A DNA stretch of 60,000 nucleotides from Botryllus schlosseri (GCA_051294905.1 CM119371.1:2916001-2976000), one strand, 5' to 3'. Numbered from the stretch's first letter, positions 9,676-52,905 are shown. Notes: generated from the sequence alone by a model not told the origin. A program made the numbers and translations.

Positions 9676-10219
9676 CAGGGTTGTAACTAAGTCACATGGT
9701 TCCAGGTCAATCTCACTTTTATAGTTCTGACTCAAGTCAAGTCGAGTCATTTTGAATTCACCACCGACTCAAGTCCGAGTCATGTCAGCAAGCAGAGAAT
9801 CGAGTCTGAGTCTTGATATTATGACTCGAGTCAGGGTCCAAGTCATTGCGTCAATTGATCAGTTTTCCGTTACAGTATTGTTTAATTCAATTTTTATAAC
9901 TGTTTAGTGATATCGAATGGTTCGAATTTATAATACACTAATATATTTTCAACTTGTAAAAGTTTTTGGTATTATTTTCAAGTACGGCTACCAATAGATG
10001 AAATACCAATAGTGTGGCTACTTTACTATTTTTCGAAATTACAATGAGATGGCCGCCTTGGCCTACTGCGTCTCGAGTCATATGGCTTGGACTCAAGTCA
10101 TTACACAGATTGACTCGATTCCAGCCATTTCAGTACTTTGAGAAAATGACTCGAGTCAAGCTGAGTCATCAAAAAATCGTGAATCGAGTCGAGCCATGAC
10201 TCGAGTCATTACAACCCTG
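9676..10219 (-). mobile_element. hAT-type MITE (GACTCGAGTC family), reverse orientation
   Basis: CAGGGTTGTAACTAAGTCAC...GAGTCATTACAACCCTG; degenerate TSD CTTTTCGT/ATTTTGGT. Confidence 0.85.
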
Positions 10220-11317
10220 ATTTTGGTAATGCTCAAGTACTGGTAGGCTTGTCTAGTTAAACTATCAACTCAATTCGTTACGATTTTAGACTGCTTCTAC
10301 TTGTTCTTCACAGTTTCATGTAAAACCGGCCTACTTACTTCTCAACCACGATGATTTGTCAAGTGGAAGTAGTTTGGGGATGAGCTTGCGTGATTTTTTG
10401 AGCTACATTGGCATGACACGTGGGCGAAATATCCCTGCATCACAAACATAAAATATATTTCTGAAAATTGCACATAAGCCTAATGTCGCGTCATTTGTCA
10501 TGCTACGTCACTCACGGAGATGCACATGCAATTCCGGAAATATCAAACTTCGATTACTTGCTAAAAGCATGTAACACGCCCAACAAATTGACTTTTTCGG
10601 ACTACTTACTCGTTTACTTTTCAGACCCTTCGTTTCGTACGTACACTTGACGTAGACATTGAAAATCTATTTGAAATCGAGTACAAAGTTACGGCTATCT
10701 TTCACCTCAATTTGAGTTTCTTCATTGACTACTTGGATCACGTAGTAACATACCGTACAGTTTTCCAGTTGCATGTTCAAACTTGCGGACACTTATTTTT
10801 CGCATCAAGTTCAAGGACTGCGTGACGCACATTGCTCACCATGTTAGTCATAACAATAGACATCAGTCTACACCAAAGAAGAAGAGCGTACAATAGATTT
10901 CTACTGCCAATCTAGATTGTTGACGGTATACTAACTGCAGGCTTTTTATAGTAGGCCTAGTTTTAGTTCTAGTTGCAGGGATTAAAAAGTGGGTAGTCCT
11001 GGTTCTAGATTTTTGGTCTAAAAATCCAGTGGCTCACACAAGACTCGCGGACTGCCGACCAGTGATGCAACGAGACACAAGTTACTAAATAAGCTCTACC
11101 TTGGCATCGTAAATCTGACCATGCACCGAAAAAGCCTCGGCCAAAACGTTTTCCAAAAATTGACAGATTTCGAACGAACAATCCAGCCGTCCTTTGTGAA
11201 CATCATTAGACGTCTTGGGATCGCGTTTCGTCTTGGACTTAATAACTTAAAGCAAACAAGAACTAATACCAAGCACACGCAGCATGCGCTCGAAATGCCG
11301 TTTTGCTGATCTTTTAA

Positions 11318-16715: not shown

Positions 16716-17379
16716 TACACTAGGCTACCAGCATAAGTGGTTACGATTTTAGACTACTTCAAATTCGAATTAAGAGTTTTCAGTGTGATGCAAAGTATGA
16801 TCAGAATAATTTCTTGTTTACTGGGAAATCACTGTAGCCCACTTGTACTTGAGTATGAATTTACGACATTACTTCTACTTGTTTACCTACGGGCTGTGGC
16901 CTGCAGCTATCACAATACTATGTCCAAATGAACCATTTTGTCTACGAAAGAAGTAAAAGAAATATCAATTTGTTCAACCACTCTTAGAATCGAACAATCT
17001 CTCACCAATATGCTGTTCAGTGATTTCTTCAAAACTAACCAGACTGCGTTCTTGAAGATAATTCATCATCACTGTACGGATACTGTAAAGAAATGATTCA
17101 CTTCAATGGCAGGCAAATACACAAAGATCCTGCATAGTAGTTAACAGACCGAATTAGCTACTGAATTATATTCAGTTTATACGTAGTCTGGGAGTATAAT
17201 GTAATAGACAACATTGCGATAGGAATGTGACTTCCTGTTACAATTATTCCGAGTCTTTATAAGTGCATGTAACACGTGCTGGGAGACTCATTTGCTAAAC
17301 CTACTTGCATTACTGTTTGGTCATATCGATTACTATCGAATGGCTTGCATTTTAATGTAGGCTACTAATTTTCTTCGCT

Positions 17380-17800
17380 TTTAGCAGTTTCTGGTTGCAT
17401 TTTCAAGTACGAATAGTGTGGACACTTTACTATTCTTTGATATTACGATGAAATGTCGGTCTTGGCCATCTGAGTCACATGTCATATGACTTGGTTCGAG
17501 TCATGCCCAATGACTCAAGTCCAAGTCAACTCAATTCACAGATTGACTCGAGTCGAGAAGATTAATTTCTGTATTCTGATAAAATGACTCGAGTCAAGTC
17601 ATCAGAAAATCGTGACTCGATTCATTACAAACCTGTTGTTAGTTGTCGAGTCGGACTCAGTCATTATCTTAAAAATGGAAAATGACTCTACTCGAGTCAC
17701 TTTGTGTTTTGAATCGACATATGCTCGAGTCATTGAGCATGGCTCGGCCAACTCATGTGACTCAAGACATTCTTCTCGACTTGATCCAAGTCCCGCGTAT
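17380..17800. repeat. Two back-to-back partial GACTCGAGTC-family MITE fragments
   Basis: A reverse-orientation fragment ending TTCATTACAAACCTG (about 17635) is followed by a forward fragment with TGACTC motifs. Confidence 0.65.
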
Positions 17801-18547: not shown

Positions 18548-19072
18548 CTGGGCTGTGATGACTCGAGTCACGATTTTCTGATGACTCGTGTCATATCATC
18601 AAATTATGGAAATGAATCTGACAATCTGTGTATTGACTCGACATGGACTCGAGTCATTGCTCATGACTCGAGACACATACGGCCAAGACCGACATTTCAT
18701 TGTAATTTCGAAGAATAGTAAAGTATCCACACTATTGGGATTTCGTCTCTTGGTTCTGGTACTTGAAAATGTAACTAGTAACTGCTAAAAGTGAGGAAAA
18801 TGAGTATATTATAAATGCGAACCACTCGATATTACCAAACAGAGTTATAAATGTTGATTTAATCTGACTTTAACTGGAAACTCGAGCAGTCAACAACAGT
18901 GACTTGGATTCGAATCATAATACCATGACTCGGAGTCGACCCTCTGCTCGCTGACTTGGATACCGACATGACTCAGTGGTGAATTGAAAATGACTCGACT
19001 CGATACCAAATCAAAACTATAAAAATGAGATTGAATTGTGACTCAGAGCCTTATGACTTGGTTACAACTATG
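18548..19072 (+). mobile_element. hAT-type MITE (GACTCGAGTC family), degenerate termini
   Basis: Internal sequence colinear with 44618-45201 (GGCCAAGACCGACATTTCATTGTAATTTCGAAG etc.); TIRs mutated. Confidence 0.8.
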
Positions 19073-23660: not shown

Positions 23661-26600
23661 CTACAATTTTTTGACACATCTAGGAAGATTGCGAGTCTAA
23701 TTGTGTGTTGCATTGTTCAGTTTGGCCCACTTTGCATTTTCAATCTTCACAAGTTTCTTCCATTCGATTGCCTTGAGACCTTCAGCGGCTTGCCTTCCTA
23801 CACAAAAAATCACAGGTGATCATGAAGTCAGCATTGTACTTTTCTACTAGTGGAAACCATAGATGGCTGTATTTTCTAAGTAGCTTCACGCAGGGTTGTT
23901 GACTCGACTTGAGTCATTTCTTGAAATGACTCGACTCAAGTCAATTTTTGTATTGACTCGACTTGAACTCGAGTCATTGCGTATGACTCTAACCATGTCA
24001 CATGACTCAAGACTGGGACGGCCAAGACAGACACTTTGTTGTAACTTCGAAGAATAGTGAAGCCACCACATCATTAGTATGTCGTCCATCAGTCCTGATA
24101 CTTGGAAAATACGGTCAGGAGCTGTTAGGATTATGGAAAAGTACGACATTCTATATCACTCGAGTAGAGATGAAAAAAGTGGGTTGAATCGGATTGAACT
24201 TAAAACTGAACAGTGAACACAATTACTGTGTTTCCATGCAGAGCCGACGGACGACCAAAAGGCCATGAAGCATGCATTGAACATTACAGCCGTGTTTCCG
24301 TGACCAGACCTAATCCAACCCCGTCTTGGCCGAACAAGACTGAAATGTACGTTTCTATCTCACTTATTCACTATGAATTTTCACCACATCACAAGATTGC
24401 GATAAAATGACTCGGTAATAAGGAGCCGATACGACTAGAATCGACCATTCAATCAAACTACCCACTTCGACCTGGAACATGCAGGTAGGCTGAAATTAAA
24501 CATATAAAAATAGTCCCGGGAATGAATTTTTGGGGTTGCAACGCCTTGCATTTCAAGCTCAAAATGCCGATTCTACCTCCAATATTACTTAGCTCATTTG
24601 CAATTCAGTAGTTTGAATTACAGTATTATCAGTTGTTAGTTCGTTGTGTTTGAGTTAGTACGGCATCAGATTTTCGAAGGTCGTTAGTTTTAGATGAGAG
24701 GTTCTAAAACTGGGAACGTGAAACCATCTGAAGGGAGGCGCGAAGCTGTGATCAAATAAATAAAAAAATTCCACTTTGCGCAGTTTACATCCAATTCCAT
24801 ATTAGAGGATTCTCACATCCACAGTCATAACTAGGGCGATTCATGTTGCATGTCAAAAAATGTCAAAATTGTTTACAAAGTTATATACAACTTTTTTGCA
24901 GTGTACTTTTGCAGTGTCAGTGCACTTATCATCTGACATTTACCGCTCGCAACCTACTTTATAGGCCTACTGCTGTAGACGGCCCATTGTGTGCTCATTG
25001 TGAATCATAAACATTCAAATGAAACAAATAGGTTGGCATGATGATATGCTCAACGTACCGCAATAACCTAGCTGAAGCAACACTGCGTGGGCAATGCATG
25101 GTACTTATATCAAGAAGCGTTGTACTTCTAAACATTTCAATTATTTCTACCTTAATACGTAATGTTACTACTGCAATGCTTCATAGGGCCAGATTTCGTT
25201 AAAATAAGTTTTTTCATGTAAAATCTTTTCAGTTATATCGGCAAAATAAAATTTTCAGTATAAACTACTTCGTAAGAACAAACCGTTCCAATCAGAGGTG
25301 AAGATAAGTAGTACAATTCTAACGTTATGTGGGAATAAAACTAATTTATATACATTAGATCAAATTTGGTCAGATTTTTTAGGTGGAAAATGTCAAAATT
25401 TTGATTTTTAGGTCAAAATCCTTCGATTTTAGGTAAAAAAACCCTGATCAATACCATCCATGCCATCAAACTGTCCGTTGGGATTGGCTGCGTTCTGATT
25501 GCGTTTGTGATATTGACGATAGGGGGCGCGAAATTTTTCAATATCAAAATGGGGACGAATCAAAGATCGAATTTAAATTGCAAGTTTCGCGAAGCGAGTA
25601 CAGATTTTGGAAATCCAGTAGTTTATTCAAGTCTGGTTACAGTACGGTACTGTACGGTAAGTATAAACGAGTCTACTCACGTTTTCATTACCATTTCAAC
25701 GAGTTGATACAATTTGCCACTTTGTCAGAGGTGAAGTCATGAATTGAACGTGAGTACATCCCTTGGACATGCCAATGGCGATCTGAATAGAAGATGTCAA
25801 ACATGTGACAGAACGGTATTGAATTTGAAATATATGAATACATGCAGGAAAATAATGTGACCATAATGATGACCATACGTACAACGCACTTGATATCAAA
25901 AAGAAACCAGTAAGTTTCTCATTTAATTCTAACTTTTTGATATTTGCTTTGCGACTTACACACACTTGCCACAAACAAATTTTGAGTTCAAGCGGGTGTA
26001 TTTGTGTCTGACGCTAGCTCAAAATTGCATTCACTTTATCATATTTGTCAGTTGATGAGACAGATACCAACGGTTCTATACCGAGGCAATGGTATTGTTA
26101 ACGGCAAGTTTCAAGATGAGATACGCACGCGTGTTTGCGAAAGCACAGCCTGTTGAAGTGGTCTGGCGGACAGTTTTGAGATGAACCGAGTCACTTTGCA
26201 AAAATGACTTGACTCGGTGTTCAGAAATGTGTATTGACTCGTGACTCGAAGCAAAATCAAGTCAAGTCATCAAGAAATCGGTGTCTCTATAAATCGCTGT
26301 ATGCTTTACAAAATGTTCGGATTGATCTCGATACGCTGGTGTGACTTGTGAGAGCGACGAATCTCATTCATTCAATGATCTTGCGTTTTACTGAACTAGA
26401 GTAGGTGAGCACCATAATACTGACGAGTTTGTGCTGAATATTAGCCTGCACATACCTGGTTGAACAAAAACTTTTCTGCCGAGATACAAATTCCTCTTGC
26501 CATCCTTCTTAATCCATTACTTCTTCTGTTGATTTATCATCCTTTCACGTCTGCTCACAACTTGATTAACTCGAGTCTCATTCCCGTCTAGGTTGTTGCC

Positions 26601-34500: not shown

Positions 34501-37250
34501 TATCTTCAGTTGACATTATCCTTGAATCTCAACTCTAAATCAAGAATAGTATTAGAGTTTAAAATTATGTTTGATATGGTATTTATCAACCATCATAATA
34601 CCGGTAGCCTATATCCATTAACGTAATTTTCCAAGTATAGTACGCCCCCCCCCCCCCCCACGTATAATACGCATTTTAAAATGGCATGCAAATTCTGGGG
34701 AAAAAAACAGTACCAATGTATAGTACGCACCAGGGTTGTAATGACTCGAGTCACGATTTTCTAATGACTTGACTTGACTCGAGTCACGAATTTCTAATGA
34801 CTCAACTTGAATCGAGTCATTTTTTCAAAATGCGAAAATGACTCGACTGTGTATTGACTCGACTTGGACTCGAGTCATAGCGCATGACTCGAACCAAGTC
34901 ATTAACTCGAGACTCAGACGGCCAAGACCGAGATTTCATTGTAATTCCGAAGCCAACACACTATTGGGATTTCGTCTGTTGGTACTGGTTTTTGAAAATG
35001 CGATCAGAAACTGTTAAGAGTGGGAAAATTGGCATATTTTAAAAGCGAACCGTTCGATATCACCAAACAGAGTTATAATAGGTGGGTTTACCAAGACTTT
35101 ATCTGAAAGCTGAGCAGTGAACACGATGACTTGGACTCGGACTCGAGTCATAATTCCAGGACTCGGACTCGGTGGTGAATTGGGATGACTCGACTTGGCT
35201 CGAGTCAAAACTATAAAAGGGAGATTGACTTGTGACTCGGAGCCTTGTGACTTGGCTACAACCCTGGTACGCACCATGCATTCGCAGAGCATGAATAGCT
35301 GTGTTCAAGTATACGGTGTAATTCTTTTTTGCGATGTCACTGTTGAACAATCATGACATAACGATCGTTAATCATTATACAATTAATGGCATAGTATCTA
35401 AAAAATAATAGATTACAGTCAAAGATTGCGAGGCCGGCGCCGCGATAGTTCAGGCCAGCGACATAACATCTTGCGCAGGAGGCCAGATGCGATTGCTCAG
35501 GTTAACGATCATGTCGTGCGTACCAGGCCTGTTGTATATGCGACTGATTACGCAAGTGATTACATCTTGCGCACATGGCCTGTTGTATATGAGATTGTTC
35601 AGGCCTATCGTTGATGGGATGAATTAGCGAGGATTAGCGCGCGCGTGCAGCAATCAATGACCTAATTTTGCTCGCGTACAAACGTCAAACTAACTCAACA
35701 TTAGACTAACTCAACATTAGGTCACGTACTGTGCAGTTATAGTTCCTCAGGAGACTGAGGAGAGTATGAATTGTACTAACCATATGGATGTGATGACTAT
35801 ATTGATTGTGAGGGCAATTTAAAGACACTAGACCAGGATTTCCTAACCTGGGGATAACGGAACCATTGGGAGTGTGCTTATAGTTTAAGATCCATGAGGG
35901 GATACTGTTGAAAACACAACTATGAACCTACACCGTCCCTTATAACATTTGTCCTTAGTTTTGTCTTAAATCCCAATTCTGTCTTATTTTCAGAGCTCAC
36001 AACACCACAAAGTGATGACCATCTATTACTCATAAGGTAGCTTTACAGTTAACAAATAAAGCAAATAACAGCATGAGATGCCATGATCAGGACTGGGCGG
36101 ATATGATAAAGTTTTTTTAATCAGGTTTCCAATTTTGTGTTCAGGGATCCTCGCAACGACCCAAGAAGATTTTGGGGACAAGGCTACATAGGAGGTGAAA
36201 ACACGCTGCACTTGACTCTGGAATAAATTCATTATGATTCAACACACTATTGAGTAGCAACATCGCCAGTTTGGCGAGACCACGGCTGATATGAGGCAGT
36301 ACAAAAAATGATTGAAACCACTACAAATTTATGTAGCCGAATTCCACAGCTATCTTAAAACATATGTAGCGTACTCCAATGGTTACATACACATTTTTAA
36401 GTCGATCAACTAAAAAAATGATGAGAATCCGTCAAATATTGTGACATAAACAAATAGTAATACTTTTACTGGTCAAATTGTTACATAATTTTGAAGCAAA
36501 ACGTGTGTTACCAGGAAAACACTACCTCACAATTCTGTAAATTTTGTGACTACTTCTTTTATCAAGCGACAAGCCTTCAATATCTTGCATTTTGCAATTA
36601 AGGTATAAAACTATAAAATATCTGTCGGATATGGCAGAAAAGTCGTCGCGGAACGGCAATTTGGAACCATCACAAAAGAACCAGGGACTGTAGATTTGTG
36701 CAAACTGCAAACCTAGATAGTTGACGATATACCAACTGGGCCTACTAGCTGCTGGCTTTTAGAGTACCGTAGTTCTAGTTCCAGTTTCGGGGTTTAAAAA
36801 GTGAGTAGTTCTAGGCGGGCAATTCAAAAATCCGGCTGACTGTCAACCACTGTTGCAGTGAGTCTTATGTTACAAACTTATTTGTACCTTGGCATAGCAG
36901 ATCTGTCCATACTCATAAAAAGCCTTGACCAAACCGTCTTCCGTAACATCCAATGACAAATTTGAATAAACACCAGCCGCTCTTCGATAACAGTAGGAAC
37001 TGTCTTGATGCCGCGTTTCTTTCTGGACTTGACACCTGAAAGAAACCAAGCATTAAGACCAAGCATACGCAGTATGCGCCTGAAATATAGTTTTACTGGC
37101 CTCTTATGAATGTATCTATTTTTCCAATGTCGCCAACTATACTACGAGAGTAGCCATAATCAGCAACTTTATCAATGAGAGAGACACGGTGCTAATTTTT
37201 GTTTAATTAACATCGAATTGCATAAAATTACGAGGCAGTTCCATGCTATC
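31520..37250 (-). pseudogene. RBM28: Fourth partial RBM28-like exon relic set
   Basis: 37035-36888 (EERLVFI/SNLSLDVTEDGLVKAFYEYGQICYAK, frameshifted); 33953-33850 (decayed RNP1 exon); 33314-33166 (LDGNEHRVY*AVS...DRRNLYLGR); 31678-31520 (GTQAAEALSTIAWKK...AKRAKLKNPNVSFSTTGLCV). Correct exon order on the minus strand. Confidence 0.74.
34731..35266 (+). mobile_element. hAT-type MITE (GACTCGAGTC family)
   Basis: TIR CAGGGTTGTA...TACAACCCTG; perfect 8-bp TSD GTACGCAC; colinear with 44618-45201. Confidence 0.92.
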
Positions 37251-39115: not shown

Positions 39116-39246
39116 GGGGAGAGTGGGTAGGTATGGGCCACTGGGTCACTAATGACAGTCTATACCGAAATTTAGGAATATTAGACAAAGTTTGGCCAAG
39201 TTATAGCTTTGTAAGATTTAGTGGCCCATACCTACCCACTCTCCCC
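39116..39246. mobile_element. 131-bp MITE with 25-bp perfect TIRs and TA flanks (Tc1/mariner-pogo type)
   Basis: TA|GGGGAGAGTGGGTAGGTATGGGCCACT ... AGTGGCCCATACCTACCCACTCTCCCC|TA. Confidence 0.8.
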
Positions 39247-39963
39247 TACTTATGGTATGTAGGCCAATTCATTCAAAATAAATTGATATTTACCAAGATA
39301 TATTCCACTCGTTATGAGAGAAATTTCTGAAAAATATGAAACTAGATGGAGTCCAGATCTATTATCATGGCACAAGCAATCCATTACGCTGGATTGATCA
39401 CAACTCAAGGTCAAACTTGATCAGACTCGCAGCATTGTTTTACATAGAGGTAGGCTACATATTATCTATAGGATTGTGACACAATGATTTGCGTACCAGT
39501 ACTCGAATATGATTCAAGTATCATCAACTCTACTGATTCGAGTCAAATAGTGAAATCTGATTTTTTGGACTAATGAAGCTTTACGCCCAGTTTTATCAAA
39601 AAATTAATAATTGCAAACATTTTCTGAAACTTTGATTGGACATATCGCAACATACAAAATATGTTGTACAAAGCTATGAACGTTAGCGGAAATGACATTT
39701 CTGTGTAACTGTGATCAACTTACAACATTGTCACAGAGACAAATAAAGTATTTTCAAAAAATTCCAAATTATTATTATGTGGTGAAGAGCCGGCCTTATG
39801 TTACGTAGTTACATGAAAAGTAGGGTACATACTCAAGCTTTTGGGACTCCCATATACTTATATCGTCATCATGATTGATTATCAAATACTCGGCGTGAAG
39901 TCAAATACTCATTCAGAATAGAATCACTCAGGTACCGGTATTCGATTTGCCCAGATGTAGAGT

Positions 39964-40250
39964 AGGGGTTAAACTCGCTCAGAGGCCAAACGCCAGACGC
40001 CAAACGCCGAGCGGCGGCCAAATGTCTGTACGGCGTTTGGCGTCTGTTATGGTGAGACGCCGAGTAGCTATACGGCGTTTGGCGTCTGTTATGTTCAGAC
40101 GCCGAGTAGCTATACGGCGTTTGGCGTCTGTGATGTTCAGACGCCGAGTAGCTATACGGCGTTTGGCGTCTGTTATGGTGAGACGCCGAGTAGCTATATG
40201 GCGTTTGGCCTCTGTTATGTTCAGACGCCGAGTAGCTATACGGCGTTTGC
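39964..40250 (+). repeat. Left inverted terminus plus about five tandem 42-bp subterminal repeats of the Zisupton element
   Basis: Unit CGGCGTTTGGCGTCTGTTATG(G/T)T(G/C)AGACGCCGAGTAGCTATA starts at 40031 and 40073 and continues with period 42. Confidence 0.9.
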
Positions 40251-40432
40251 CCCCGATTGGTGTCTCGGTAAACTGAGCAGAGGCCTAATCATTTCATGGT
40301 GCGACTATCAAGTTCTCGCAACTATGTGATATCTAAGATTGCAAGTTGTAAAATTTTTGTCATAATAAGCGGTGGCAGAATCCCAAATGATCTATTGCAT
40401 GTTCAGCTGTATCAAATTATTGTATCACCGCC

Positions 40433-40805
40433 CACGGTTGCAATGAATCGAGTCATGACTCGACTCACTTTCTTAAAAATGGATTTACTCATTGTATGAC
40501 TTTTTAAGAATGGTATATCGGGACTGATAAATAGGCTCAAACCTGCCTTTTATCTGTTACAATAACCATGTTTAGAATGGAAAAAATGAAGATAAAAATT
40601 ATCCGAGACCTTCGATATCACCCCCGCGAGTTCCACAGAAGTGATCTGAAGCTGAACTCTATGGGGAACAGTAAACACCATGACTTGGACTCGACCCATT
40701 GCTCTCAGGTTTGACTCGTTGGGGATTGCTCGGACTTGACTCGCCGGTGAATTGAAAACGACTCGACTTGACTTCTTGAAACCTAGTGAATCGGTTGCAA
40801 CCCGG
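40433..40805 (+). mobile_element. Degenerate, internally deleted GACTCGAGTC-family MITE inside the Zisupton 3' region
   Basis: CACGGTTGCAATGAATCGAGTC...TTGCAACCCGG; 8-bp TSD TCACCGCC/TCACCACC. Confidence 0.75.
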
Positions 40806-40874
40806 TCACCACCCCATATTTGTACACTCGCAATGAATTTCAGACCCAAGTCTGCAGATACAGCATGTAATGAA

Positions 40875-41416
40875 ACCACAATATGAAATGGGCAACGAAA
40901 CCACAGCAGAAGGCAATGAAACCACGGTAAAAGTCATCGAGAAATAAGAAGTGGAACCACAGTAAAAATGACTGAGAAATATGCATTGCAACCATAGTAA
41001 AAGTCACAACGAAATAAGCAGTGGAAACACAGTAAAAGTCAGAGAAATATGCAATCAAACCACAGTAAACGTCACTGAGGAATCAGCAGTGGAACCACAG
41101 TAAAAATGACTGAGAAATATGCATTGCAACCATAGTAAAAGTCACAACGAAATAAGCAGTGGAAACACAGTAAAAGTCAGAGAAATATGCAATCAAACCA
41201 CAGTAAACGTCACTGAGGAATCAGCAGTGGAACCACAGTAAAAATGACTGAGAAATATGCATTGCAACCATAGTAAAAGTCACAATGAAATAAGCAGTGG
41301 AAACACAGTAAAAGTCAGAGAAATATGCAATCAAACCACAGTAAACGTCAATAAGAAATCAGCAGTGGAACCACAGTAAAATTGACTGAGAAACAGGCAA
41401 CGAAACCACAGTAAAA
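40875..41416. repeat. 138-bp higher-order tandem repeat (about 3.3 copies, built from four roughly 34-bp subunits) downstream of the transposase stop codon
   Basis: GTGGAACCACAGTAAAA recurs at 40951, 41089, 41227 and 41365. Subunits share (A)ACCACAGTAAA. Confidence 0.9.
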
Positions 41417-41433
41417 TATAGAAGCATCAGAAT

Positions 41434-44400
41434 TCACACCACAGTACATAGCATGCAATAAAAATCATCATCAGGATCAGGTATCCGCTGTCCCGGGCAA
41501 CAGTCCTCGTGTGTCCATCGACCACAGCCGTCACACGCAACCTGGAAACAAGTTAGAATCAATATACCCGACGAATGTAATCTCGTAATTGCATACCCAT
41601 TTCATGTCTTTTTTTGGGGGGTCTTGACTACCGCATTTAATGCAATAATCTTCCAATTCTTTCTCATCTGCGGGAGAAACATGCAACGTATTTAATATGG
41701 TTTTAACCTGACATGGACCAGCATACCCGTCGCATCAAGCAAAATTTGACCAAACTGCTGGCGGTAGCTTTCGCAAGCTTGTTGAGAATGATCAAAATCC
41801 AGGTTTGCATCGGGGATTGATAATCCAGTGGTTAAGTAGAGTTTGGCAGCCTATTAAGTGTCAGTTGATTGCAAATTAATTTTCTCAAATCTCAATACAT
41901 GAACGCATCACAAACCTTCAAAGCAAGGACTCCACAATTAAATCCGTCATTTTGAACACCGGTCCTTATTAATCCTGTATATCTCGCAACTGATTCTCTT
42001 CTTGAGTACGTTCGTATAAATTCGCTGGATTAATACAGAAATGAAATATGTCTCTTGAATACGACCTCATCAACTTACTCAAACTGTTGCAAGACATTCC
42101 CATAGCGATCCTCGTGGCCCATTGGATCGTATAGTAGAACCATATTTGATTCAACGTCAGATACCTGAAAGAGTATATACATACATTACACTAATACAGA
42201 ATATATTGACGAGACAGAACATGGGTGGAAGGGGTGAGAAGCAATGAGTTTCACAAACTTACAATATCAAGGTAGAATCTGACAGGTATGGAACATGCTT
42301 ACCAAAAGAATCCAATGGTTGCCCCTGCCCACACCAGTTCCGCCACAACGAACATTAAGTGGCGCTACAAAAGATTTTGTAGCTGCTTCTTTCTAGAGTG
42401 AATCACTAAATTAGAGAATATTCAAAAGTCTTGTTACTATTACACATACTGTTTTCTTTTTGCCAGAGGCAAATTTCCCAGCAACAAACCAATTAGTAGC
42501 TAGCAGACAGGAAACAACCATTGTATGACCTTCCGACTGAAATTACAAGCTTTAAATAGCTTTCAGCAACAAAAAACTTGAGCAAGGCAATGACTTACTT
42601 TTTCATTGAGAGCAAAAAGAATACAATCCATCAACTGAAATTTATGAGATAACAAGATCAATAAGTCGTCATGAAAATGACAGCAGAGCAAATGACCGTA
42701 TCATTTAGCCAGCCACATCCATTCAAAAGCAGCATGTCTTGTGTGGATACAGGTAGCCGATTCACGACAGCTTCAATCCTATTTGCTTTATGCGCCGACG
42801 TAAAAAGTGAATTTATTTCTAAAAAGAGTATTATCATCAGTACGATAAAATTACCAACATGAAATATAAAGAAACATACCTGTGAATTTGAATGGAAGTA
42901 TCTGGATATCTTTGCATTTTGTGGCATTTTTGTCCACAGAATTTTCAAATGCATCTCTTGCAACAATGGAGCAAGATTCCGTTTTCGGCTGAGACAATTT
43001 GTCATAGCATGAATCAACAGATATGGAATTGGTAACAGAAGCAACATGCGACGGAACAGTCACAGTAGCAATAGTGAGACGAGCGGGAACATTACTACCA
43101 CTTGATGCTTGTACAGGGTTGGTGACAGTGGGAGGAATAGTGGCTTTTTTATCAGTTCGTGACACCGTTGCAGAATTGGCCGACCGGTCGTAGAAGGAGC
43201 AAGTAGCTACATTGCCGGGCAGTTTTCCAACTGGTCCATCATCTGTGGGTAACAAGTCCATATTAAATACACTGGAAAATCAAAATTTGACTTAATGATG
43301 AAACAAAGTCACAGATGGAATTTGCAGCTACTACCTTTCATAGCCAGTGTCGCACGGCCATCATCTGCGAGGACAACAGGCTTGGAGAAATGTCTCTTGG
43401 TCTTTTTCATATATCTTTCGTTAATCTTCATATTTTGAAGATGCAGGGAAACTCTCGACAGAAATATGAAATTTACTGGATCCATATTGCAAAGAAAATG
43501 CCTGAAATACCCATGTTTTAGCTAGTGCTATTCTATATGTGGCACACACACAATTCACTGACCGGTCTCGTGCCATGATAGCATTTTGCTGCTCAGCAAT
43601 ACTTGTGTTAACAAGAGCCAGGTCTTTACAGTATTTCATATCTCTGAATGACTTCTCAGCAGACTTTTTCTTTGATTTTTGATGGAAACGATCACCGAGA
43701 GAGTAGAAAGTCCCAGGAGTTTCGTCCAAGCGTATTGAAATTGGATCAAGATGACCCTCTGACTCCTTCTTGATGTTATCTGGAGTGCATTCAAATAGCA
43801 TTCCTCTGAATGGCGAGAACATGCCCGGAGAGCGATTTTCCCCATGGTGGGCAATCTAGAGAACGGCAAATGATTGTGACGCACATAAGAATGACTGATG
43901 ATTTATGAGATTTCCACTTACCTGAGAGGCAATGTCCGAAATTATGACTCGGGGTTGATGTTTGAATGACAACAAAGCATCAACATAATCTCGTGCACTT
44001 TCTTGACGTAATACATATTTAAAATAAACACATATGCCACATGGACATCGGAGATGGACTATTCCCCCTGCCAAGTTAATAGAATATAAAAAGTCGAGTT
44101 ACTCCAGTCGCCTGTGGAGTCTAGTATGGTATAGAAAGTTTACCACCACATTTGGTAATGCTCTTGAACATTTTCGGGGTGATCGTTTTGAACAGTAGTA
44201 GTTCATTAATTTTATTAATCAAATCTCCTTTGCTTCCCGTGTCATTCATTCCCACTTTTTGACAGATGTCACGCAAGTCACCAAGTGTGTTCTGAATATG
44301 CAAATGAAGTGTATCATACAATTGCTACTAGGATTTCGATCATACCGAAGGATTGTTTAAAGTCAGAAGTATCTCGTCCTCTGTTGTTGGAGCTGCATTC

Positions 44401-47400
44401 AGTTTGGACTTTTCCAAGGGTCTTTTAATAAGAGTGCCTTTCCGGTGTTCCGTATTCAAAAGAAGATCTGATGACCTGCAGCTTTTTGCCATCCAAGGTG
44501 CGACACTGTCGTGGCTTATTTTCACCTTCCACGGATTGGCGGACGTTCCTATAAAACAATACAGTCACTAATCTGTTGTTGAATGATATGTCTGAACTTA
44601 AAGTCATCTGTGTCGATCAGGGTTGTAATGACTCGAGTCATGACTCGACTCGAGTCAGACTCGAGTCACGATTTTCGGATGACTCGACTCGACTCGAGTC
44701 ATTTTCTCAAAATACGGAAATGACTCGACTCGACTCGAGTCAATCTGTGTATTGACTCGACTTGAACTCGAGTCATTGCGCATGACTCGAAGCAAGTCAT
44801 TGACTCGAAATTCAGACGGCGAAGACCGACATTTCATTGTAATTTCGAAGCAAACACACTATTGGGATTTCGTTTATTGGTACTGGTGCTTGAGAATGCG
44901 ACCAGAAACTGCTAAAAGTGAGGAAAATTGATATATTATAAATGCGAACCATTCAATATCACCAAACAGAGTTAAAAAAGTGGGTTTAGGAAGACTTTAA
45001 CTGGAAACTGAGCAGTCAACACGATGACTTGGACTCGGACTCGAGTCATAATACCACGACTCGGACTCGATCCTCTGTTCGCTGACTTGCACTCGGACTT
45101 GACTCGGTGGGAATTGAAAATGACTCGACTTGACTCGAGTCAAAAATATAAAAGTGAGATTGACTTGTGACTCGGAGCCTTGTGACTTGGTTACAACCCT
45201 GGTGTTGATCTAGAATGGATCCTCTGTTATCAGCTCCGAAAAATTTAATTACCACAGAATCCTCGGCCAATAATTTCTTTTCGATATGCCATCCAAGAAT
45301 CCTCAATATTTACAGTGTCTTCAAATTGCACATCTCTCTTGGTAGCATCCACTGTAATAAAATTCATACAGGAAATTCAATGAGTGATGCAGAACCATTG
45401 AAATTCAAACATACCGTCAATAGCACATGTATTCTTCCAATTGCCATCCCCTACGACTATGGATGGGGAATTGCCACATTTTAGACAGGCGAAACTATCA
45501 CTCATGTCCTGCAGAGCCAAAAAATGGAGAAATGCATTTCTTAATTTGTTTGTCGGAATTTCATCAGAAAACAGGGATGCAAGATTGGCTCCCACTGAAA
45601 TGTGATTCTGGAAGACAGTAAACACATGCATGGAATGGCAAGAACTAGATATGGAATTAAGATACCTGAATCCCATTCTTCAAGTGCATACATAGTCGCA
45701 GCGTCAGTAATATATGACCATCAAAATTATGCACACCAGACTTGTAATTCTGGAATCGAACCTGCCAGCCACACGAATTGCAAGACTTTTCCTTGATACA
45801 GACTCCTAAAATTTATCGGATTGAGAACAGAATGAAATAACCTCATTTGATGAACTTGAGCTATATTGCACTACAGCAATGTTTAAAGAGCTTCTTGGAG
45901 CTTCAATATACAATTGAATAGCATATAGAATTACAGCAATGAAAAATAAAATCAATTACCTTTCCACATACAACCCACTCCATAAATCTGAGCTTTTCGC
46001 ATTCCGCTCACTTCAAGAACTCCAGCACACCTTGCACAAACAGTTTCTTCTGGCGTTAATTCTGAAATTATTCCTTCCTTCAAATATTCATTAGGTATCT
46101 TTTCCGGGATCAGTTTATGCTCGAGATAATACTTCATATTCAACTGCATGTCATCAGTAGGAGGTTGAGTACTGTAAATCAAATATTAGGAAATTAATTA
46201 TGGAATCTTCGAAAGTCATGCGATGAAGATTACCTCGACATACATGATATGAGATCTGGTTCAGTCTGGAACACATACCATTTTGCCAGTGTGATGTGCA
46301 AGCTTGTTCCAGTTTTCCATGAGCACAGACATGACCATGAGCCTCCGTCAACGTCAAATGTCACCCGCACTCTTTCACTAGGACTATAGTATGTCGTCTC
46401 GCCAGTGAAGATGGAATAATACTTGTATTTCTTCGAAATATTGAATGCTTCAAAATTCGCATGCACCACGAGTGGAGCATTGCATTGCACACTCCTCATT
46501 CTTTCACTGCTGCATTTTTCACTAGTTGCGGTTGATATTAGCTTCATTTCAACGAGGGTGTTCAAAACCTTTTCATCTAAATCAATGTTTGCACATGGGC
46601 GTGCATTTTCTACAGCATCTAAATGATCACATTGGACCCCGGGATTTTTGTCCTTGAGGGTCCCAAAAATTGATATACAGTCTTTGTCTTCACACCCAAT
46701 CAGGCTTCGTAATAAATGCTTCGTAACGTGCAAAGGAGCAGCTTGGCCTGATGATCCTTGCGAGACCATAAACACACCATTTTTCGGATCAATACAAACT
46801 GCAGGAAGGGTTGATGGATGGCCGTGGGCATCTCGTTCATGTCTTGTCAAGCCATGAGACCTTGCATATGACTTGTCGCATTTGGTGCATTGCTTTTTAC
46901 TTTTGCTATCTGCTGGTTGATTTAAACGACGAGTCTTGCTTTCCTTGTTTGGTGGCGGATTGCCACATACTTTCTGTAAATGACTTTGAAATGTACCACG
47001 TCGACCAAGAACTTTAGTGCAGGTATGGCAGTGGTAGTGACTCCTGCCTCTGGCCTGACCAATACGTTCCATACACTTCAAACGGCATGGTACGATATAG
47101 CCTGGAATATGTGAATACAATTAGATACACAAGGGTAAATCCATGTCAAATCAACCACACTCCTATCCACTCTCCACTCCTATCCAAGTAGTTGAGAGTG
47201 GATTATAGTGTATAATGATAGAATATATTGAAGGAAAAATTTCTCCCAATCAAATTGATCATGCATAACATGAACTAGCGCAATTATGTCTACACAAAAA
47301 TTGGAAATTAACATGTCATAATTATGAGAGCTGGTTCAGAGAGAAACATGGCTGACTCCGCTGACATGTCTTGCTAACTAATATTTGATGGGTATAAGTA

Positions 47401-47868
47401 GCCTACCTCAAAATTAATCAACTTTACATAAATACTTCTGAATCCATTGGGTAGGCCTACCGGTTACAATGCAATTTGAGATTAACCACAGCAGAGATTG
47501 GTTCACTCTCAAGTCTCAGATTTTTCTGAAAATTGCCTCAAAACATGAATTCCAGTTTTCAAGTAATCGCAAGCCATGATAATATCAAGCTTTTTAACAC
47601 TCAGTCTATTACCCATAAATCACAATCGAGTAGAGATTCTTCACTAAGGAATGCGACATGGCTATATACTCGGGTAAGATATTTACAGACCTTGCACTTC
47701 GTTGTCGATATAGTGAGGTACACGATGAGCCCAGTGTACCGCCTCGATATGCTCATTTAGCTTTTCTGACGTTTTGAACGTGTAGATTTCGCAGAGACCG
47801 CAATTAAGTTCTTCTGTTATGATTCTAATGAGGTGTGTCAAATCCTCAGTTAGAGCAATCGCTGTCAT
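41434..47868 (-). CDS. Zisupton/KDZ transposase (HMGXB3-related) with C2H2, SWIM-like, CxC, SAP, Ulp1/C48 protease and PHD domains; 21 exons, about 1280 aa
   Basis: Manual GT-AG splice model with all phases compatible and no internal stop: 47868-47691, 47101-46234, 46171-45960, 45805-45666, 45607-45415, 45351-45253, 44548-44346, 44291-44144, 44067-43922, 43855-43563, 43501-43335, 43242-42880, 42818-42697, 42634-42599, 42536-42450, 42392-42303, 42164-42079, 42024-41916, 41850-41727, 41667-41597, 41541-41434 (3843 nt). Motifs: CGLC..HIEAVH and CTKC..HERDAH (C2H2); CLKCGNSPSIVVGDGN, ESARDYVD, IISD, DRFH, NTSIAEQ (KDZ core); LGDLRDICQKVGMNDTGSKGDLINKI (SAP); WLND, NHW, YDPM, QNDGFNCG (Ulp1); CIKC..W VACDGCGRWTHEDC..FYCMLC (PHD). 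The start codon and first intron are the least certain parts. Confidence 0.88.
44618..45201 (+). mobile_element. hAT-type MITE (GACTCGAGTC family) nested in intron 6 of the Zisupton gene
   Basis: TIR CAGGGTTGTAA...TTACAACCCTG; 8-bp TSD GTGTCGAT/GTGTTGAT; arrays of GACTC/GAGTC motifs. Confidence 0.92.
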
Positions 47869-48033
47869 TGCTGCAAGAAAACTCGATAATCATAAGCATC
47901 TAAAGACGTCTACCATAGTGTTCTATGTAGCAGACATCCTTTGTCTGTCGGCGTTAAAGCTCCCAACTTCGACTCTCTAGCAATCCCTGAGAGTGACTAC
48001 CCTCATATAAGATCCTATACGCTAGACAAATTC

Positions 48034-48204
48034 AGACGCCAAGTAGCTATACGGCGTCTCACTTTTCGGACGCCAAACGCCGTATAGCTACTCGGCGTCT
48101 ACGCCATCTAGCGTCTCCGTTCAGCCGCCAAACGCCGTGTAGACATTCGGCCGCCGCCCGGCGTCTGGCGTCTGGCGTTTGGCCTCTGAGCGGGTTTAAC
48201 CCCT
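48034..48204 (-). repeat. Right inverted terminus with subterminal repeats of the Zisupton element
   Basis: Reverse complement of 39964-40090 with a few mismatches. It includes ACGCCGTATAGCTACTCGGCGTCT and a further copy in the opposite orientation at 48034-48058. Confidence 0.9.
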
Positions 48205-51200
48205 GTTGCAGATGTAAGCCTAGTACATACCAGCAAATCTTTTTCCTGCATGATTTCGTCTCCTGCATCGTCGTCCATCGATAATTCCATTTCAAGTCAA
48301 CAACACAGTAACCCACTAGGTCTTAGATTTTTATGTCATTGTAGGAATGCATCTGGTATCTAGCACCGAGTGTGGAAAACATTATTTTTTCAATATTCAG
48401 ACACTGAAACCATCGCATCCGCATCCGGCCCGCCAGGCGATTCTAAAAAAAGGCTGCATTATCCGGCACATTTCTAACAAATGTTCAGATTTTAGTAGGA
48501 AACACTTCCATTCTCTCAAGTCAGAAAATGTCGAGCATGTTCATAGGCCACATTATAACCATTAGACAGTGGTGTTGAGGTTACACTGTAGTCACCATTA
48601 GCAACAAGTCACTGCCATTGACACTAGTGTAACCATACGTTCTGTTTTTTTGACGTTGTCGAAAGTGTTCTCAGTGCACGCTCAAATGGCCTCTTTTTGA
48701 GATTATGTCTTGTTTTTTGAAAATTTTGGTTAAATGTATGTGAAATTCCACTGAAAAATTTGAAATAAGTACTGAAGTAACGGTTGGGCGGGTCTTTCGG
48801 GAGTTGAGCCAGAAATATGAACTTTTTTTATTCAACCAACTACAAACTTGTTTTCTCGGATTTTACCGCCGTATTGTAAGTCTGAAAATTTTATAAAAGG
48901 AGTCCTCTTTTAGATTTCTAAAATATGGTAACCCTAATTGACACTCACTTCCGAGAAGGCAAAAAAGTGCTCAGTGTGTTCACAGTTTTATGGAAAAATG
49001 GACCACAAAGTAGTTATCTGCAGTAGTGGTTAATATAATTATGACAACAAAATATAATTTAAATATCTGTAGTCGCACTCCGTCTGCGCTTATAACTCAA
49101 CATCTCCTTGTCTGCTGTAGAAACTCGAATCACGATGTAAAAATGTTGAAACAACTTTCAACGGCTACGTTTACGGTTGAATCGCTTGTATTTCTCACAA
49201 CGCATATACAGGACTATATTGTCAGATTACGACTAAAACAAAGCTATCATAGCAATATGCCAACAAATATCGTCCGTAAAACAGCTGTTTTAGCAATTTA
49301 TGAAACTATTTAACCGGCCAATCATCGTAATTTCGCCCATTCGGTTGATTGCGAATAAAGGTATTGATGTAATAGAACCGGATAGCCCGTGATACAATGT
49401 AATTATTATAATGCATATAAGCTTTATAATTGAGTAGTAGAGTGGAAAACGAGGGCATGGATTTTGAGGAAATATATTGAAATCATTTGTCTGGTCCGAC
49501 CTGCGAGTTTTGTGAAGGTTTGAATCCGACCCGCGACGCCAGTGGAGTTTGACACCCCTGCTTCAGATGAACAAATTACCAGGAACCACGAATTCCGCAG
49601 CTGCGGTGAATATCTCGTGCATGGAATATAAGTTAATTCATGTGGAGGGGACTCGTACTCTGCGGCAGGACTCAATGATAAACGTGTGATGGTGGGAAAG
49701 AACGTTCCATATATCCAATGCAACTAATACTGGATGATAAGTACTACCTTCTTTCGCTTACAATCTTCTAACGTCTTCCTGAATTCATCTTCTTTCTCAA
49801 CGTAAAGGACATGGACATGGACATGAAGGGGAACGGAAATTGCTCTCCCGCGCTCCAAAATTAGTTTGTAATCGTCGACGGGTATCTGGCCATTCACGGC
49901 AATATCCAGGAGATCCAACTAAAATGCGGAAATTTTTTTTTTCAGACTTGAAGATAGCCACGGAAGAGATCATTGGGTCCGAAGTCACATAAAATGATAG
50001 GTAAATATAAATGCGGTTGGCAATACTTTATGAATCGAATCAGGAATCATACTTGATACTTTTTCCAGCAAGTCTCAATCATCGACCAGTCGATGTTTTC
50101 TTCAACTATGCAATCGAGCACGATCTTGCTTATCTGAACACAATATTGGTTTCATTAGGTAAGATTACTTGATTGTTACGATGTATTCCCATTTGAATAT
50201 TTATTTATATAGTTTCAGTACAATAGTGATTAGTATGAATTCTTCGATTCTCCATAATGCATATACTACATCGGTTTTAGTCACATCCAAGAACATGTTT
50301 TTTTATAAATCTACTTATGAATATGATATGCATTGTACAAACGGATGATATAGAAGATGATGATCAAAGTAGTCATCGTCAGTGGTCAAGTAGAAGTAAC
50401 ACTTTCAATTTCTACTCAGGTAGAGGTATAAGAATCAATATGCAGGTAGTAAAAAAGTGAGTACTCAAAGCCTAGTTTTGTCTGAAAAATGAAAACCGCA
50501 AATAGAATTGAAAGTATTCTAAAATCATAACCACTTGAGTAAGTAGTTAAGTAGGAATAATCTACTTAATTACTACGACAAGTAGAAGTACTTTGTTACT
50601 GATCAACGCTGGACATAGGATATAGGTAGGAACTCTTGCTATGTAACGAGGTCACTCATATTTACCCGAACTTACCTATATACTTGACACGGAGAAACAT
50701 ACCTTATTTTAATTGTTAACTGCCAGCTTTCCAAAACCCTTATTTGTAGCATGCATTGTTGATTTTCACCTCGGACAACGTCAATGCTTGAGCGTACAAT
50801 TTTACTTATAAAATGGATGAAAATTTATCCGTGAAGTACTGTACTTTATATTTTCCAAAATCAAAATTTATGGAAACTTAACACGAACTACTTTCTCCGT
50901 ATCAGAATACAAAATACAACAAGCGATTAGTCTCGTAAAATAGGGTTTTCATGTTCTGGAATCGGGTAAAGATGGTAAACTTTTTCCACTTCGTAGTCGG
51001 CTGACTATAAAAAAGGTCAACTTTCGCTCAGCTCACGAAACACCCGCCTAACAGTTAGTTCAATGTCATTTTATGGTATCTCAGTCGAATTTTGCCCTGT
51101 GTTTCAGCAAAATTCTGAAAAAAGAGGACAAAATCTCAAAAATGACATTACCAATACCCCGAAAAAGGAGGATAAGTCCTCCTAAAGAGGACGTATGGTA

Positions 51201-51739: not shown

Positions 51740-52905
51740 AGAGAGAGAGAGATAGTCTTTATTTTTTCATCGAACCAAAATACATAACAAACGGCAGTGA
51801 TGGTGGTACAGAAAATATGCGTGCACAGTATTCGGTATTAGATAGGAATGATCGATAAGACCATGAAGGTCATCTAGTCTGATCACACCAGCATCAAACA
51901 GGTACACTTGACTCAGAACAGTCTGGCTGTAAGAAATGTTTAGTTAGGAAAGGAAAATAGAAAAAAAATTAAACAATGGTAGCAAATGATCAATGAAGCA
52001 ATGTCTGGGCGAGGTAGGGCAACAGTGTTAGTGTAACGACAAGAGGTGATCAAGTAGGGCTTTTTTGAATCTATTATAAGGCAATTCACGGATATGTGAT
52101 GGTAATGCATTCCAGATGATAGGTCCCGAGTAGTCGATAGATCTCTTAGTTAGGTTGCTATTGGGTTGGGGTAAGTAGACGTTTCCTTTAGACGAAGATC
52201 TCGTGTAATGGGAATGGACATGTTTAGCAGGTATGAAAAAGTCATCAAACACAGGAGGCAGACTATTGGAAAAATACTTGTGAACAACTTTTGATACTTC
52301 GAAGCGATACAGTTCATCAACTCGCAAAATTCGATGCTTACGGTAGTAAGGCGATAAATTGGTACGTAAAGGTACAGATGATATCAGCCGTATCGCACGG
52401 TTTTGCAGGGTTCGAATTCTGCACAAAAATGTTGTACATGCATTTCCCCATACTACGATTCCATACTGCAGATGCGAGTGGAAAAGAGAGAAGTAGATGG
52501 TTCGTAGTATTGATCTGGAAACCAAAGATTGGAGACGGGTCATTATTCCCACACACCGAGCTAGTTTTGATATTGTGCATTCAATATGCTGCTTCCAAGA
52601 CAATTTCGAATCAATGGTGACGCCGAGATATTTTGCTGAGTCACATATTGAGATTTGTTTATGATTGATGTTCACAGTGAAATTATGACTGGCATTATTT
52701 AAAACGAGCATCTCGGTCTTATCTGCATTCAAACTTAGTTTGTTTGCTTGCAGCCATCTCGACACTTTTGGGAGTTCCCTATTCACAGATGCATGCAGAT
52801 CATCGAAAGTGTTGGAGGTTATGAAGAGGTGAGTATCATCAGCAAATAGCGTTGTGCGGAATAAAGATGCATTAACAATGTCGTTAATATAAATGAGGAA
52901 AAAAG
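51740..52905 (-). mobile_element. 5'-truncated LINE (CR1/L2 group): C-terminal part of ORF2, 3' UTR and (TC)n tail
   Basis: Open frame 52028-52918 with FLIYINDI...LFADDT (RT catalytic motif), WLQANKLSLNADKT, KYLGVTIDSKLSW, YGIVVWG, LQNRAIRLI. AATAAA followed by a TC microsatellite tail at about 51740-51765 on the minus strand. No endonuclease or RT N-terminus. Confidence 0.9.

Follow-up and report, generated by a model that had tools for sequence, protein, structure and literature searches.

A probable full-length Zisupton-type DNA transposon with a 21-exon transposase gene in the tunicate Botryllus schlosseri

What occupies positions 39960–48208 of a 60,000-nt stretch of the Botryllus schlosseri genome (GCA_051294905.1 CM119371.1:2916001-2976000; the whole stretch, counted from its first letter, is hereafter called the window), a segment in which open reading frames (ORFs) appear as fragments only? 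An initial annotation, made from the sequence alone, had described a complete, coding-intact Zisupton/KDZ transposon in an invertebrate-like genome. Most probably, in our view, the segment is a cut-and-paste DNA transposon of the Zisupton type (KDZ group), present here as a single copy of full length in the genome of a tunicate. That host is both an invertebrate and a chordate, and the named relatives of the encoded protein come from Ciona intestinalis and Styela clava. As such, the complete 8.2-kb element is a well-preserved addition to the known Zisupton mobile DNA and represents neither a new kind of element nor a new mechanism.

The borders of the element are sharply defined. It is 8249 bp long and lies between two copies of CAGATGTA (39952–39959 and 48209–48216) that agree at eight of eight positions, as the initial annotation had reported, and that correspond to an 8-bp target-site duplication from one insertion. 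The chance of a perfect match for one fixed pair of 8-mers is 4^-8, or ∼1.5e-5. The inverted ends seen earlier are confirmed as arms of 83 nt (39964–40046 and 48122–48204) with 92% complementarity, and in the end alignment the arms are identical from AGGGGTTAAAC inward. A 31-nt end pattern has two sites in the window, which are the two ends, and two matches were reached in none of 100 shuffles. Inside the left end, a 42-bp unit is repeated in 5.3 tandem copies. Allowing ≤3 mismatches, its 24-nt core has seven sites, of which five lie at the left end and two, facing each other, at the right end; seven occurrences were again reached in 0 of 100 shuffles. Folded as single-stranded DNA, the 42-bp unit has a weak hairpin tendency (z of -2.2 and -1.2). 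The 42-bp subterminal repeats are candidate transposase binding sites. Features at the ends and in the noncoding parts, including a miniature inverted-repeat transposable element (MITE) fragment, are as follows.

39952–39959 (no strand): target-site duplication, left copy CAGATGTA, identical to 48209–48216.
39960–40046 (+): left terminal inverted repeat, with its inward limit at 40046; 3' end relative to the gene; outer 4 nt GAGT.
40029–40249 (+): subterminal 42-bp tandem repeat, 5.3 copies, with the palindrome ACGCCG..CGGCGT in each copy.
40433–40781 (no strand): probable MITE fragment in the 3' noncoding part, rich in GACTCGAGTC and like the left end of the MITE in intron 6.
40913–41416 (no strand): tandem array directly past the stop codon, with a 138-bp unit in 3.7 copies and 35-bp sub-units in 14.6 copies.
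48034–48100 (no strand): two subterminal repeat cores, facing each other (48034–48057 on +, 48077–48100 on −), at the gene's 5' end.
48122–48208 (−): right terminal inverted repeat; outer 4 nt GTTG.
48209–48216 (no strand): target-site duplication, right copy CAGATGTA.

Between these ends lies a gene on the minus strand that ORF tracks break up: the longest of 112 stop-to-stop ORFs of at least 40 aa across the region is 296 aa. An exon model built independently of the earlier exon list again has 21 exons, from 47868 to 41434, GT..AG borders at 20 of 20 introns, and a coding length of 3843 nt (1280 codons plus TGA) that contains 0 internal stops. Eighteen introns are 54–154 nt long, and intron 1 is 589 nt; intron 6 reaches 704 nt because a 584-bp MITE is nested inside. 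The encoded parts follow in the order C2H2 fingers, SWIM-like motif, CxC4, a first core block with GDGNW, SAP-like motif, a second core block with SD/DxFH/NxSxxEQxN, linker, Ulp1-like protease, and PHD finger. Judged by comparison with related proteins, the model is no artefact of splice-site choice, because it is collinear with the Ciona protein P0033 (XP_078495125.1, 1283 aa; blastp identity of 33.7% over 1310 columns, residues 13–1278 vs 30–1283, 666 bits), because tblastn high-scoring segment pairs (HSPs) end at or near exon borders (e.g., 45666–45806, 44142, and 43562), and because its C-terminal 277 aa (residues 1004–1280) align to another relative, P0032 (E 8.9e-17). With seven relatives as queries, all tblastn HSPs of E<1e-3 fall within the gene span on the minus strand and cover exons 2–11.

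Public sequencing contigs were compared as well. Parts of the stretch occur in 20 rows from nine studies, 19 under one species label and one (X8) under another. Four runs (X1, X5, X8, and X9), all as Logan contigs, were aligned with the window; treating X9 and X5 as RNA-like is a guess from their intron-less contigs, and X8 has no cover at 42410–43773. The gene and its exons, with the evidence particular to each, are listed here.

41434–47868 (−): transposase gene from ATG to TGA, 21 exons, 1280 aa.
47691–47868 (−): exon 1, aa 1–60, start codon and C2H2-like CxxC..HxxxxH (zf-C2H2_ZN142 E 0.0023, below cut-off); X9 record 28 covers 47713–47877.
46234–47101 (−): exon 2, aa 60–349, C2H2 fingers (zf-C2H2 E 1.1e-5) and SWIM-like WSCLC..SLH with Ser326 vs Cys in relatives; 32% identity to P0033, E 1e-41.
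45960–46171 (−): exon 3, aa 349–420; a piece of X9 record 25 begins exactly at 46171.
45666–45805 (−): exon 4, aa 420–466, CxC4 cysteine cluster (PF18717 E 3.2e-5); HSP at 45666–45806.
45415–45607 (−): exon 5, aa 467–531, GDGNW with the candidate first catalytic Asp, D520.
45253–45351 (−): exon 6, aa 531–564, from the exon model and tblastn.
44346–44548 (−): exon 7, aa 564–631; pieces of X9 record 24 and X5 record 11 end at its borders.
44144–44291 (−): exon 8, aa 632–681, SAP-like motif (SAP E 4e-5, 23.6 bits vs a cut-off of 23.9).
43922–44067 (−): exon 9, aa 681–729, IISD with the candidate second catalytic Asp, D725.
43563–43855 (−): exon 10, aa 730–827, DRFH and NTSIAEQQN with the candidate catalytic Glu, E817; X9 record 23 and X5 record 10 continue from it directly into exon 11.
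43335–43501 (−): exon 11, aa 827–883; contigs of two runs connect it with exons 10 and 12.
42880–43242 (−): exon 12, aa 883–1004, poorly conserved linker; a piece of X9 record 23 matches it exactly.
42697–42818 (−): exon 13, aa 1004–1044, start of the Ulp1-like domain (WLND).
42599–42634 (−): exon 14, aa 1045–1056, from the exon model.
42450–42536 (−): exon 15, aa 1057–1085, from the exon model.
42303–42392 (−): exon 16, aa 1086–1115, GNHW with the candidate protease His1111.
42079–42164 (−): exon 17, aa 1116–1144, YDPMG with the candidate protease Asp1128.
41916–42024 (−): exon 18, aa 1144–1180, QNDGFNCGV with the candidate protease Cys1174.
41727–41850 (−): exon 19, aa 1181–1222, from the exon model.
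41597–41667 (−): exon 20, aa 1222–1245, first half of the PHD finger.
41434–41541 (−): exon 21, aa 1246–1280 plus TGA, second half of the PHD finger (PHD E 1.2e-4, 22.5 bits vs a cut-off of 24).

The domain content agrees with the zinc modules, SAP, SUMO protease, and PHD that had been proposed, when Pfam matches of window pieces and relatives are taken together with alignments. Among 16 window pieces, zf-C2H2 in exon 2 alone clears its cut-off. Exon 4 matches CxC4, a family described as "associated with KDZ transposases," at 24.2 bits vs a cut-off of 26.9. The same family is above cut-off in relatives (E 5e-13 in P0033; seven of the 20 members of a protein alignment, A2, with a best E of 2.5e-14), and the window protein aligns there. 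P0033 also matches Peptidase_C48 (E 9.5e-13) and PHD (E 7.7e-10), and it matches yeast Ulp1 (1euv, E 1.1e-4) as well as SENP5 and SENP2. The short protease exons of the window had no Pfam match of their own; in the alignment to relatives, His1111, Asp1128, and Cys1174 are kept. The four acidic motifs that had been singled out (DGN, IISD, DRFH, and EQ) are all present, and comparison with seven tunicate relatives shows them conserved as GDGNW (519–523), IISD (722–725), DRFH (784–787), and AEQQN (816–820). An RNase-H-like fold with D520, D725, and E817 as catalytic residues is a candidate assignment. CxC4 and a SWIM-like motif lie upstream of this core, as in the canonical Zisupton structure of a KDZ domain with CxC4 and SWIM, for which an 8-bp duplication and observed jumps are described in a preprint (10.1101/2024.08.15.608186), and in this respect the earlier Zisupton label holds.

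The nearest relatives of the window protein are Ciona LOC104265342 isoform X1 (P0033), its paralogues LOC113474030, LOC113474284, and LOC101242620, and Styela clava LOC120344994. They share whole-length collinearity (P0033), the order of C2H2, SWIM-like motif, CxC4, core, Ulp1-like protease, and PHD, and a core identity of 52–57%, but overall identity is only 34–45% (by blastp, 41.6% to P0040 and 44.5% to P0002). They also differ in that the Ciona relatives are annotated as host genes by NCBI; the comparison is one of proteins alone. In a phmmer search of 1.84 billion representatives with exon 10 (97 aa), 31 proteins had E<=1e-3, 19 of them E<=1e-10. The 18 that were looked up comprise five clusters of Ciona intestinalis and one of Styela clava, both "uncharacterized," nine nameless entries, one "hypothetical protein," and two chance matches. 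The latter, from Solenopsis (P0027) and Acanthopagrus (P0028), are low-complexity matches and were set aside; they carry unrelated Pfam families and are unseen by blastp with the model. Word-based homologue searches for longer proteins with ORF pieces of 144 and 296 aa gave no match. A tree of the core places the window protein alone at an unresolved fork and contains several deep paralogous lineages within Ciona.

Language-model look-alikes serve only as leads. When CxC4 is included, the 10 named-cluster rows listed all carry KDZ-linked families, with a best score of 0.92. For the core alone (P0040 475–880), the best clusters are named "HMG domain-containing protein 3" and score 0.96 (with 207 features in common) and 0.91, ahead of KDZ clusters at 0.89 and 0.84; about one shuffled protein in 100 attains 0.95, and the score is uncalibrated for protein parts. 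The HMG domain-containing protein 3 clusters have no common Pfam family, PF18758 (the KDZ profile) included, and PF18758 may therefore simply not reach the tunicate branch. HMGXB3, which we take to be the Zisupton-derived gene of vertebrates, is accordingly the best look-alike of the P0040 core, but differs in being a fixed host gene without transposon ends and has no alignment-based match to the window (phmmer, exon 10). The HMGXB3 relation stated in the initial annotation is thus retained as a look-alike and not as a profile or alignment match, and a resemblance of the tunicate branch to HMGXB3/Zisupton is a lead.

Contigs of the RNA-like runs follow the exon model. X9 record 23 (1092 nt, gene sense) comprises 43562–43855, 43335–43500, and 42880–43242, that is, exons 10, 11, and 12 exactly joined, and its remaining ends, 147 and 122 nt, are as long as exons 9 and 13. 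The same three exons are joined in X5 record 10, from a different study. Unlisted remainders of X9 records 24 and 25 and of X5 record 11 also have the lengths of neighbouring exons. The mapping of splice junctions had been proposed as a check: of the 20, two are found joined, each of them in two runs, and the listed pieces agree with a further five. These spliced contigs belong to the family and occur in RNA-like runs; wherever they can be distinguished from the window copy, they show letters of sister copies. Contigs of X1 and X8 cross introns. X8 record 22, under the second species label, covers 45452–48098 in one unspliced piece of 2642 nt that differs at six letters and five gaps, introns included (∼99.6% identity). 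Such near-identity could mean that the two species are very close, that a label is wrong, or that the sequence passed between species by introgression or recent horizontal transfer.

The several family copies that had been expected are present as variant contigs in the public runs, while the window itself contains a single copy of the element by end-pattern and self-similarity searches. X1 contigs with another letter number 24 at 41780, 6 at 46304, 7 at 46988, and 9–11 at 40010–40028, with only 1–2 in the middle of the element. Depth of single X1 contigs is 16–48; summed depth is 40–130 at 42751–44455, 390–1040 at 45820–47865, and in the thousands near the ends, a sum that is not equal to copy number and is read knowing that the flanks are repeated too. 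The pattern fits a multi-copy family of a few full-length copies and more end-only copies. A search within the window with the flanks and a constructed empty-site junction found no paralogous empty site, and the element's end pattern had 0 matches in metagenome contigs.

Several results weigh against a mobile element of the Zisupton type. The outermost 4 nt of the ends (GAGT and, as reverse complement, CAAC) agree at one of four positions and are not complementary. Scores of SAP, PHD, and CxC4 in the window fall just below Pfam cut-offs, in the case of CxC4 because exon 4 spans only part of the PF18717 model, and the Pfam SWIM profile matched nothing in the window pieces and three relatives, although the pattern WSCxC..CxH is present in four aligned Ciona paralogues. 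The KDZ/HMGXB3 profile match by which the initial annotation had proposed to judge its own claim did not appear: HMMER found no PF18758 in the 16 window pieces, 12 + 3 relatives, seven queries searched to E<=10, or the 20 members of A2. Membership of the core therefore rests on CxC4, the architecture, and the language-model leads. A PDB profile search with A2 gave no match, a search with a second profile, A1, added five close relatives and no distant ones, and the phmmer search had no named match outside tunicates among the 18 of 31 looked up, bar the two chance ones. Nor was a second insertion with another duplication, or an empty site, found in the window or among the joints listed in the four runs. 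Splicing is also less tidy than the model: X5 record 10 continues unspliced through introns 12–16, X9 record 27 lies within intron 1, and X5 record 14 uses a different acceptor, at 47171, extending 70 nt beyond that of exon 2 to another AG (47173–47172). Beyond this AG, the latter record (region 47102–47173) continues with 138 nt from elsewhere. An alternative 5' exon is suggested by this record; such a form would not be in frame with exon 1, and its translation could start at Met70.

How far do these points favour another identity? The lack of PF18758 in window pieces and relatives, together with a phmmer search that finds nothing outside tunicates, is what would be expected if the element belonged to another or an unnamed superfamily whose accessory domains resemble those of Zisupton through convergence, such as a Mutator-like element (MULE). 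MULEs have long inverted ends, duplications of 8–10 bp, and SWIM fingers, and some plant MULEs carry Ulp1. However, their SWIM motif sits downstream of the core, and the SWIM-like motif of the window is upstream, as in Zisupton. The same Pfam scans returned no MULE, Transposase_mut, hAT, P, or other transposase family, the KDZ-associated CxC4 is above cut-off in relatives, and the look-alike clusters are those of KDZ and HMGXB3; we consider membership of another superfamily improbable. Even less credit, in our view, is due to the idea of a domesticated gene, fixed in the host and derived from Zisupton like vertebrate HMGXB3 but no longer a transposon. The length of the open frame, the occurrence of spliced contigs in runs that look like RNA, the NCBI annotation of Ciona relatives as ordinary genes, and HMGXB3 as the best look-alike of the core would all suit such a gene. 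Ends that are still intact inverted repeats, with subterminal repeats and an 8-bp duplication free of mismatches, would not, and neither would several sequence variants per run with ends more numerous than the middle, surroundings rich in mobile elements with no clear host gene, or several deep paralogous lineages within Ciona alone.

A different doubt concerns only whether this copy is autonomous, as the initial annotation had thought possible. The frame is open, but position 46304 is T in the window (AGC, Ser326 on the gene strand) and A (TGC, Cys) in all contigs counted (six in X1 and one each in X8, X9, and X5). Residue 326 is the third ligand of the SWIM-like WSCxC..CxH and is Cys in four of four Ciona paralogues aligned there, so that the window motif, which reads WSCLC..SLH, has lost its third zinc ligand. 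Further window-only residues are Q1203 and Q1204 (41783 and 41780; R in four of four runs), Y29 (47784; three runs and Ciona P0033 have N), and M646 (44247; three runs have I). Nine of 16 listed coding differences change a residue and seven are silent. With a private Ser at a SWIM zinc-ligand Cys, the copy may therefore depend on transposase from a sister copy, and we think it quite possible, while leaning the other way, that the family is mobile and the transposase of this copy is defective through private substitutions, chiefly Cys326 to Ser. Against such a defect, there is no stop or frameshift in 3843 nt, and all other checked motif residues are kept; the exchange of one Cys for Ser might do no harm or might be an assembly error, and the listing covers 40 of 266 differences. 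Ser326 itself may be a real private mutation or an error of assembly in the window. The potential autonomy claimed earlier is weakened by Ser326. The frame of this copy is intact yet slightly worn, and an intact frame does not amount to autonomy.

A transposon of the Zisupton type, as we read the element, can be set beside described systems. The name Zisupton comes from zinc finger and SUMO protease, a pairing that the window protein shares, and the platyfish element was reportedly described by Bohne et al. in 2012. Zisupton elements have inverted ends and 8-bp duplications (PMC12730594) and multi-exonic genes with 18–31 exons and proteins of up to 1400 aa (PMC9297572). The window element shares with platyfish Zisupton its inverted ends and 8-bp duplications (PMC12730594) and a multi-exon gene for a protein of ∼1200–1400 aa (PMC9297572). 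In contrast, platyfish Zisupton has CxC7 at residues 1333–1393 and, in one isoform, an F-box (PMC12062965), neither of which is seen here; the window protein ends in a PHD finger, and phmmer with exon 10 gave no match to fish proteins, the chance one aside. KDZx1 of Cryptococcus deneoformans likewise has CxC4 and SWIM upstream of the core and an 8-bp duplication, and its mobility was observed (10.1101/2024.08.15.608186). KDZx1 is a fungal element of 6.4 kb with two ORFs, a PF18758 match, and no detectable inverted ends, whereas the window element has 83-nt inverted ends, one gene of 21 exons, additional SAP, Ulp1, and PHD modules, and no PF18758 match. Fungal KDZ1 to KDZ3 have duplications of 4–8 or 8 bp (10.1101/2025.05.19.654958). 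Zisupton elements of Pristionchus pacificus, which underwent recent bursts of activity, resemble the window element in having 18–31 exons, proteins of 1166–1367 aa, inverted ends, and annotation as ordinary genes; PF18758 is matched there and no target-site duplication was found, the reverse of what is found in the window (PMC9297572). A vertebrate gene is said to derive from Zisupton (PMC3424704). No report of Zisupton in Ciona, a tunicate, or an ascidian was found in the full-text literature searched, as far as the passages returned by that search extend.

The element lies among other mobile sequences. Its intron 6 contains the following insertion.

44618–45201 (no strand): nested high-copy MITE of 584 bp with ends CAGGGTTGTAA..TTACAACCCTG.

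This MITE, presumably hAT-like by its ends, has an 8-bp duplication of its own, GTGTCGAT and GTGTTGAT, that agrees at seven of eight positions (44610-17 and 45202-09). At least six further copies with 69–80% identity are in the window (5433–5930, 9676–10221, 17334–17623, 18560–19068, 23901–24227, and 34731–35268). In each of the four runs, its borders (44618 and 45201–03) are breakpoints of many contigs whose flanks differ, and summed depth there reaches ∼10^5 in X1. The fragment in the 3' noncoding part of the element is probably related, 40433–40466 being 91% like the MITE's left end (44618–44651). The neighbouring array at 40913–41416 is filled by 138-bp units built of 35-bp sub-units. Summed depth in the bin 40705–41045, which overlaps its start, is far above that of neighbouring bins in four of four runs, and the 138-bp repeat is for this reason probably present elsewhere in the genome too. 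Both flanks of the element (39187–39846 and 48889–49200) have 11–26 X1 contigs with other letters and a summed depth in the thousands; being repeated in the genome, they place the element in repeat-rich DNA. No clear host gene is in its neighbourhood, and no Rfam family was matched in the window. A 301-aa open frame on the minus strand at 52028–52933 matches the C-terminal part of RVT_1, a reverse transcriptase family, at E 2.9e-6, below cut-off, and contains an FADD motif. The frame probably represents a piece of a non-LTR (long terminal repeat) retrotransposon.

How would such an element move? We suggest that its zinc modules (C2H2, SWIM-like, and CxC4) and SAP would bind the inverted ends and the 42-bp subterminal repeats. 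Excision, and reinsertion at a cut staggered by 8 bp, would be the work of the putative RNase-H-like, DDE-type core (D520, D725, and E817). For the Ulp1-like protease and the PHD finger, a possible action is on host SUMO and chromatin, serving either the choice of target or escape from silencing. A bolder scenario takes the tunicate elements to be a still-mobile chordate branch of Zisupton nearest to the source of HMGXB3, too diverged for the KDZ profile, with a PHD finger added to the Ulp1 protease, active now, and recently passed between two ascidian species, the passage being proposed because of the ∼99.6% identity, introns included, under a second label. We consider this scenario as a whole unlikely. 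What makes the family interesting, if borne out, is its likeness to HMGXB3, the addition of a PHD finger, and the occurrence of a nearly identical copy under another species label.

Few superfamilies of eukaryotic DNA transposons have been studied as little as Zisupton, which to our knowledge has neither a solved structure for its catalytic fold nor a tested role for its accessory SUMO protease. A transposon gene of 21 exons escapes ORF-based screens, and the Pfam KDZ profile misses the tunicate branch. "Uncharacterized proteins" of Ciona and Styela could be re-annotated as transposases. A complete copy from the sister group of vertebrates, with its ends, duplication, and full gene model, is a starting point for activity assays, and it can be used to ask whether HMGXB3 descends from the tunicate branch.

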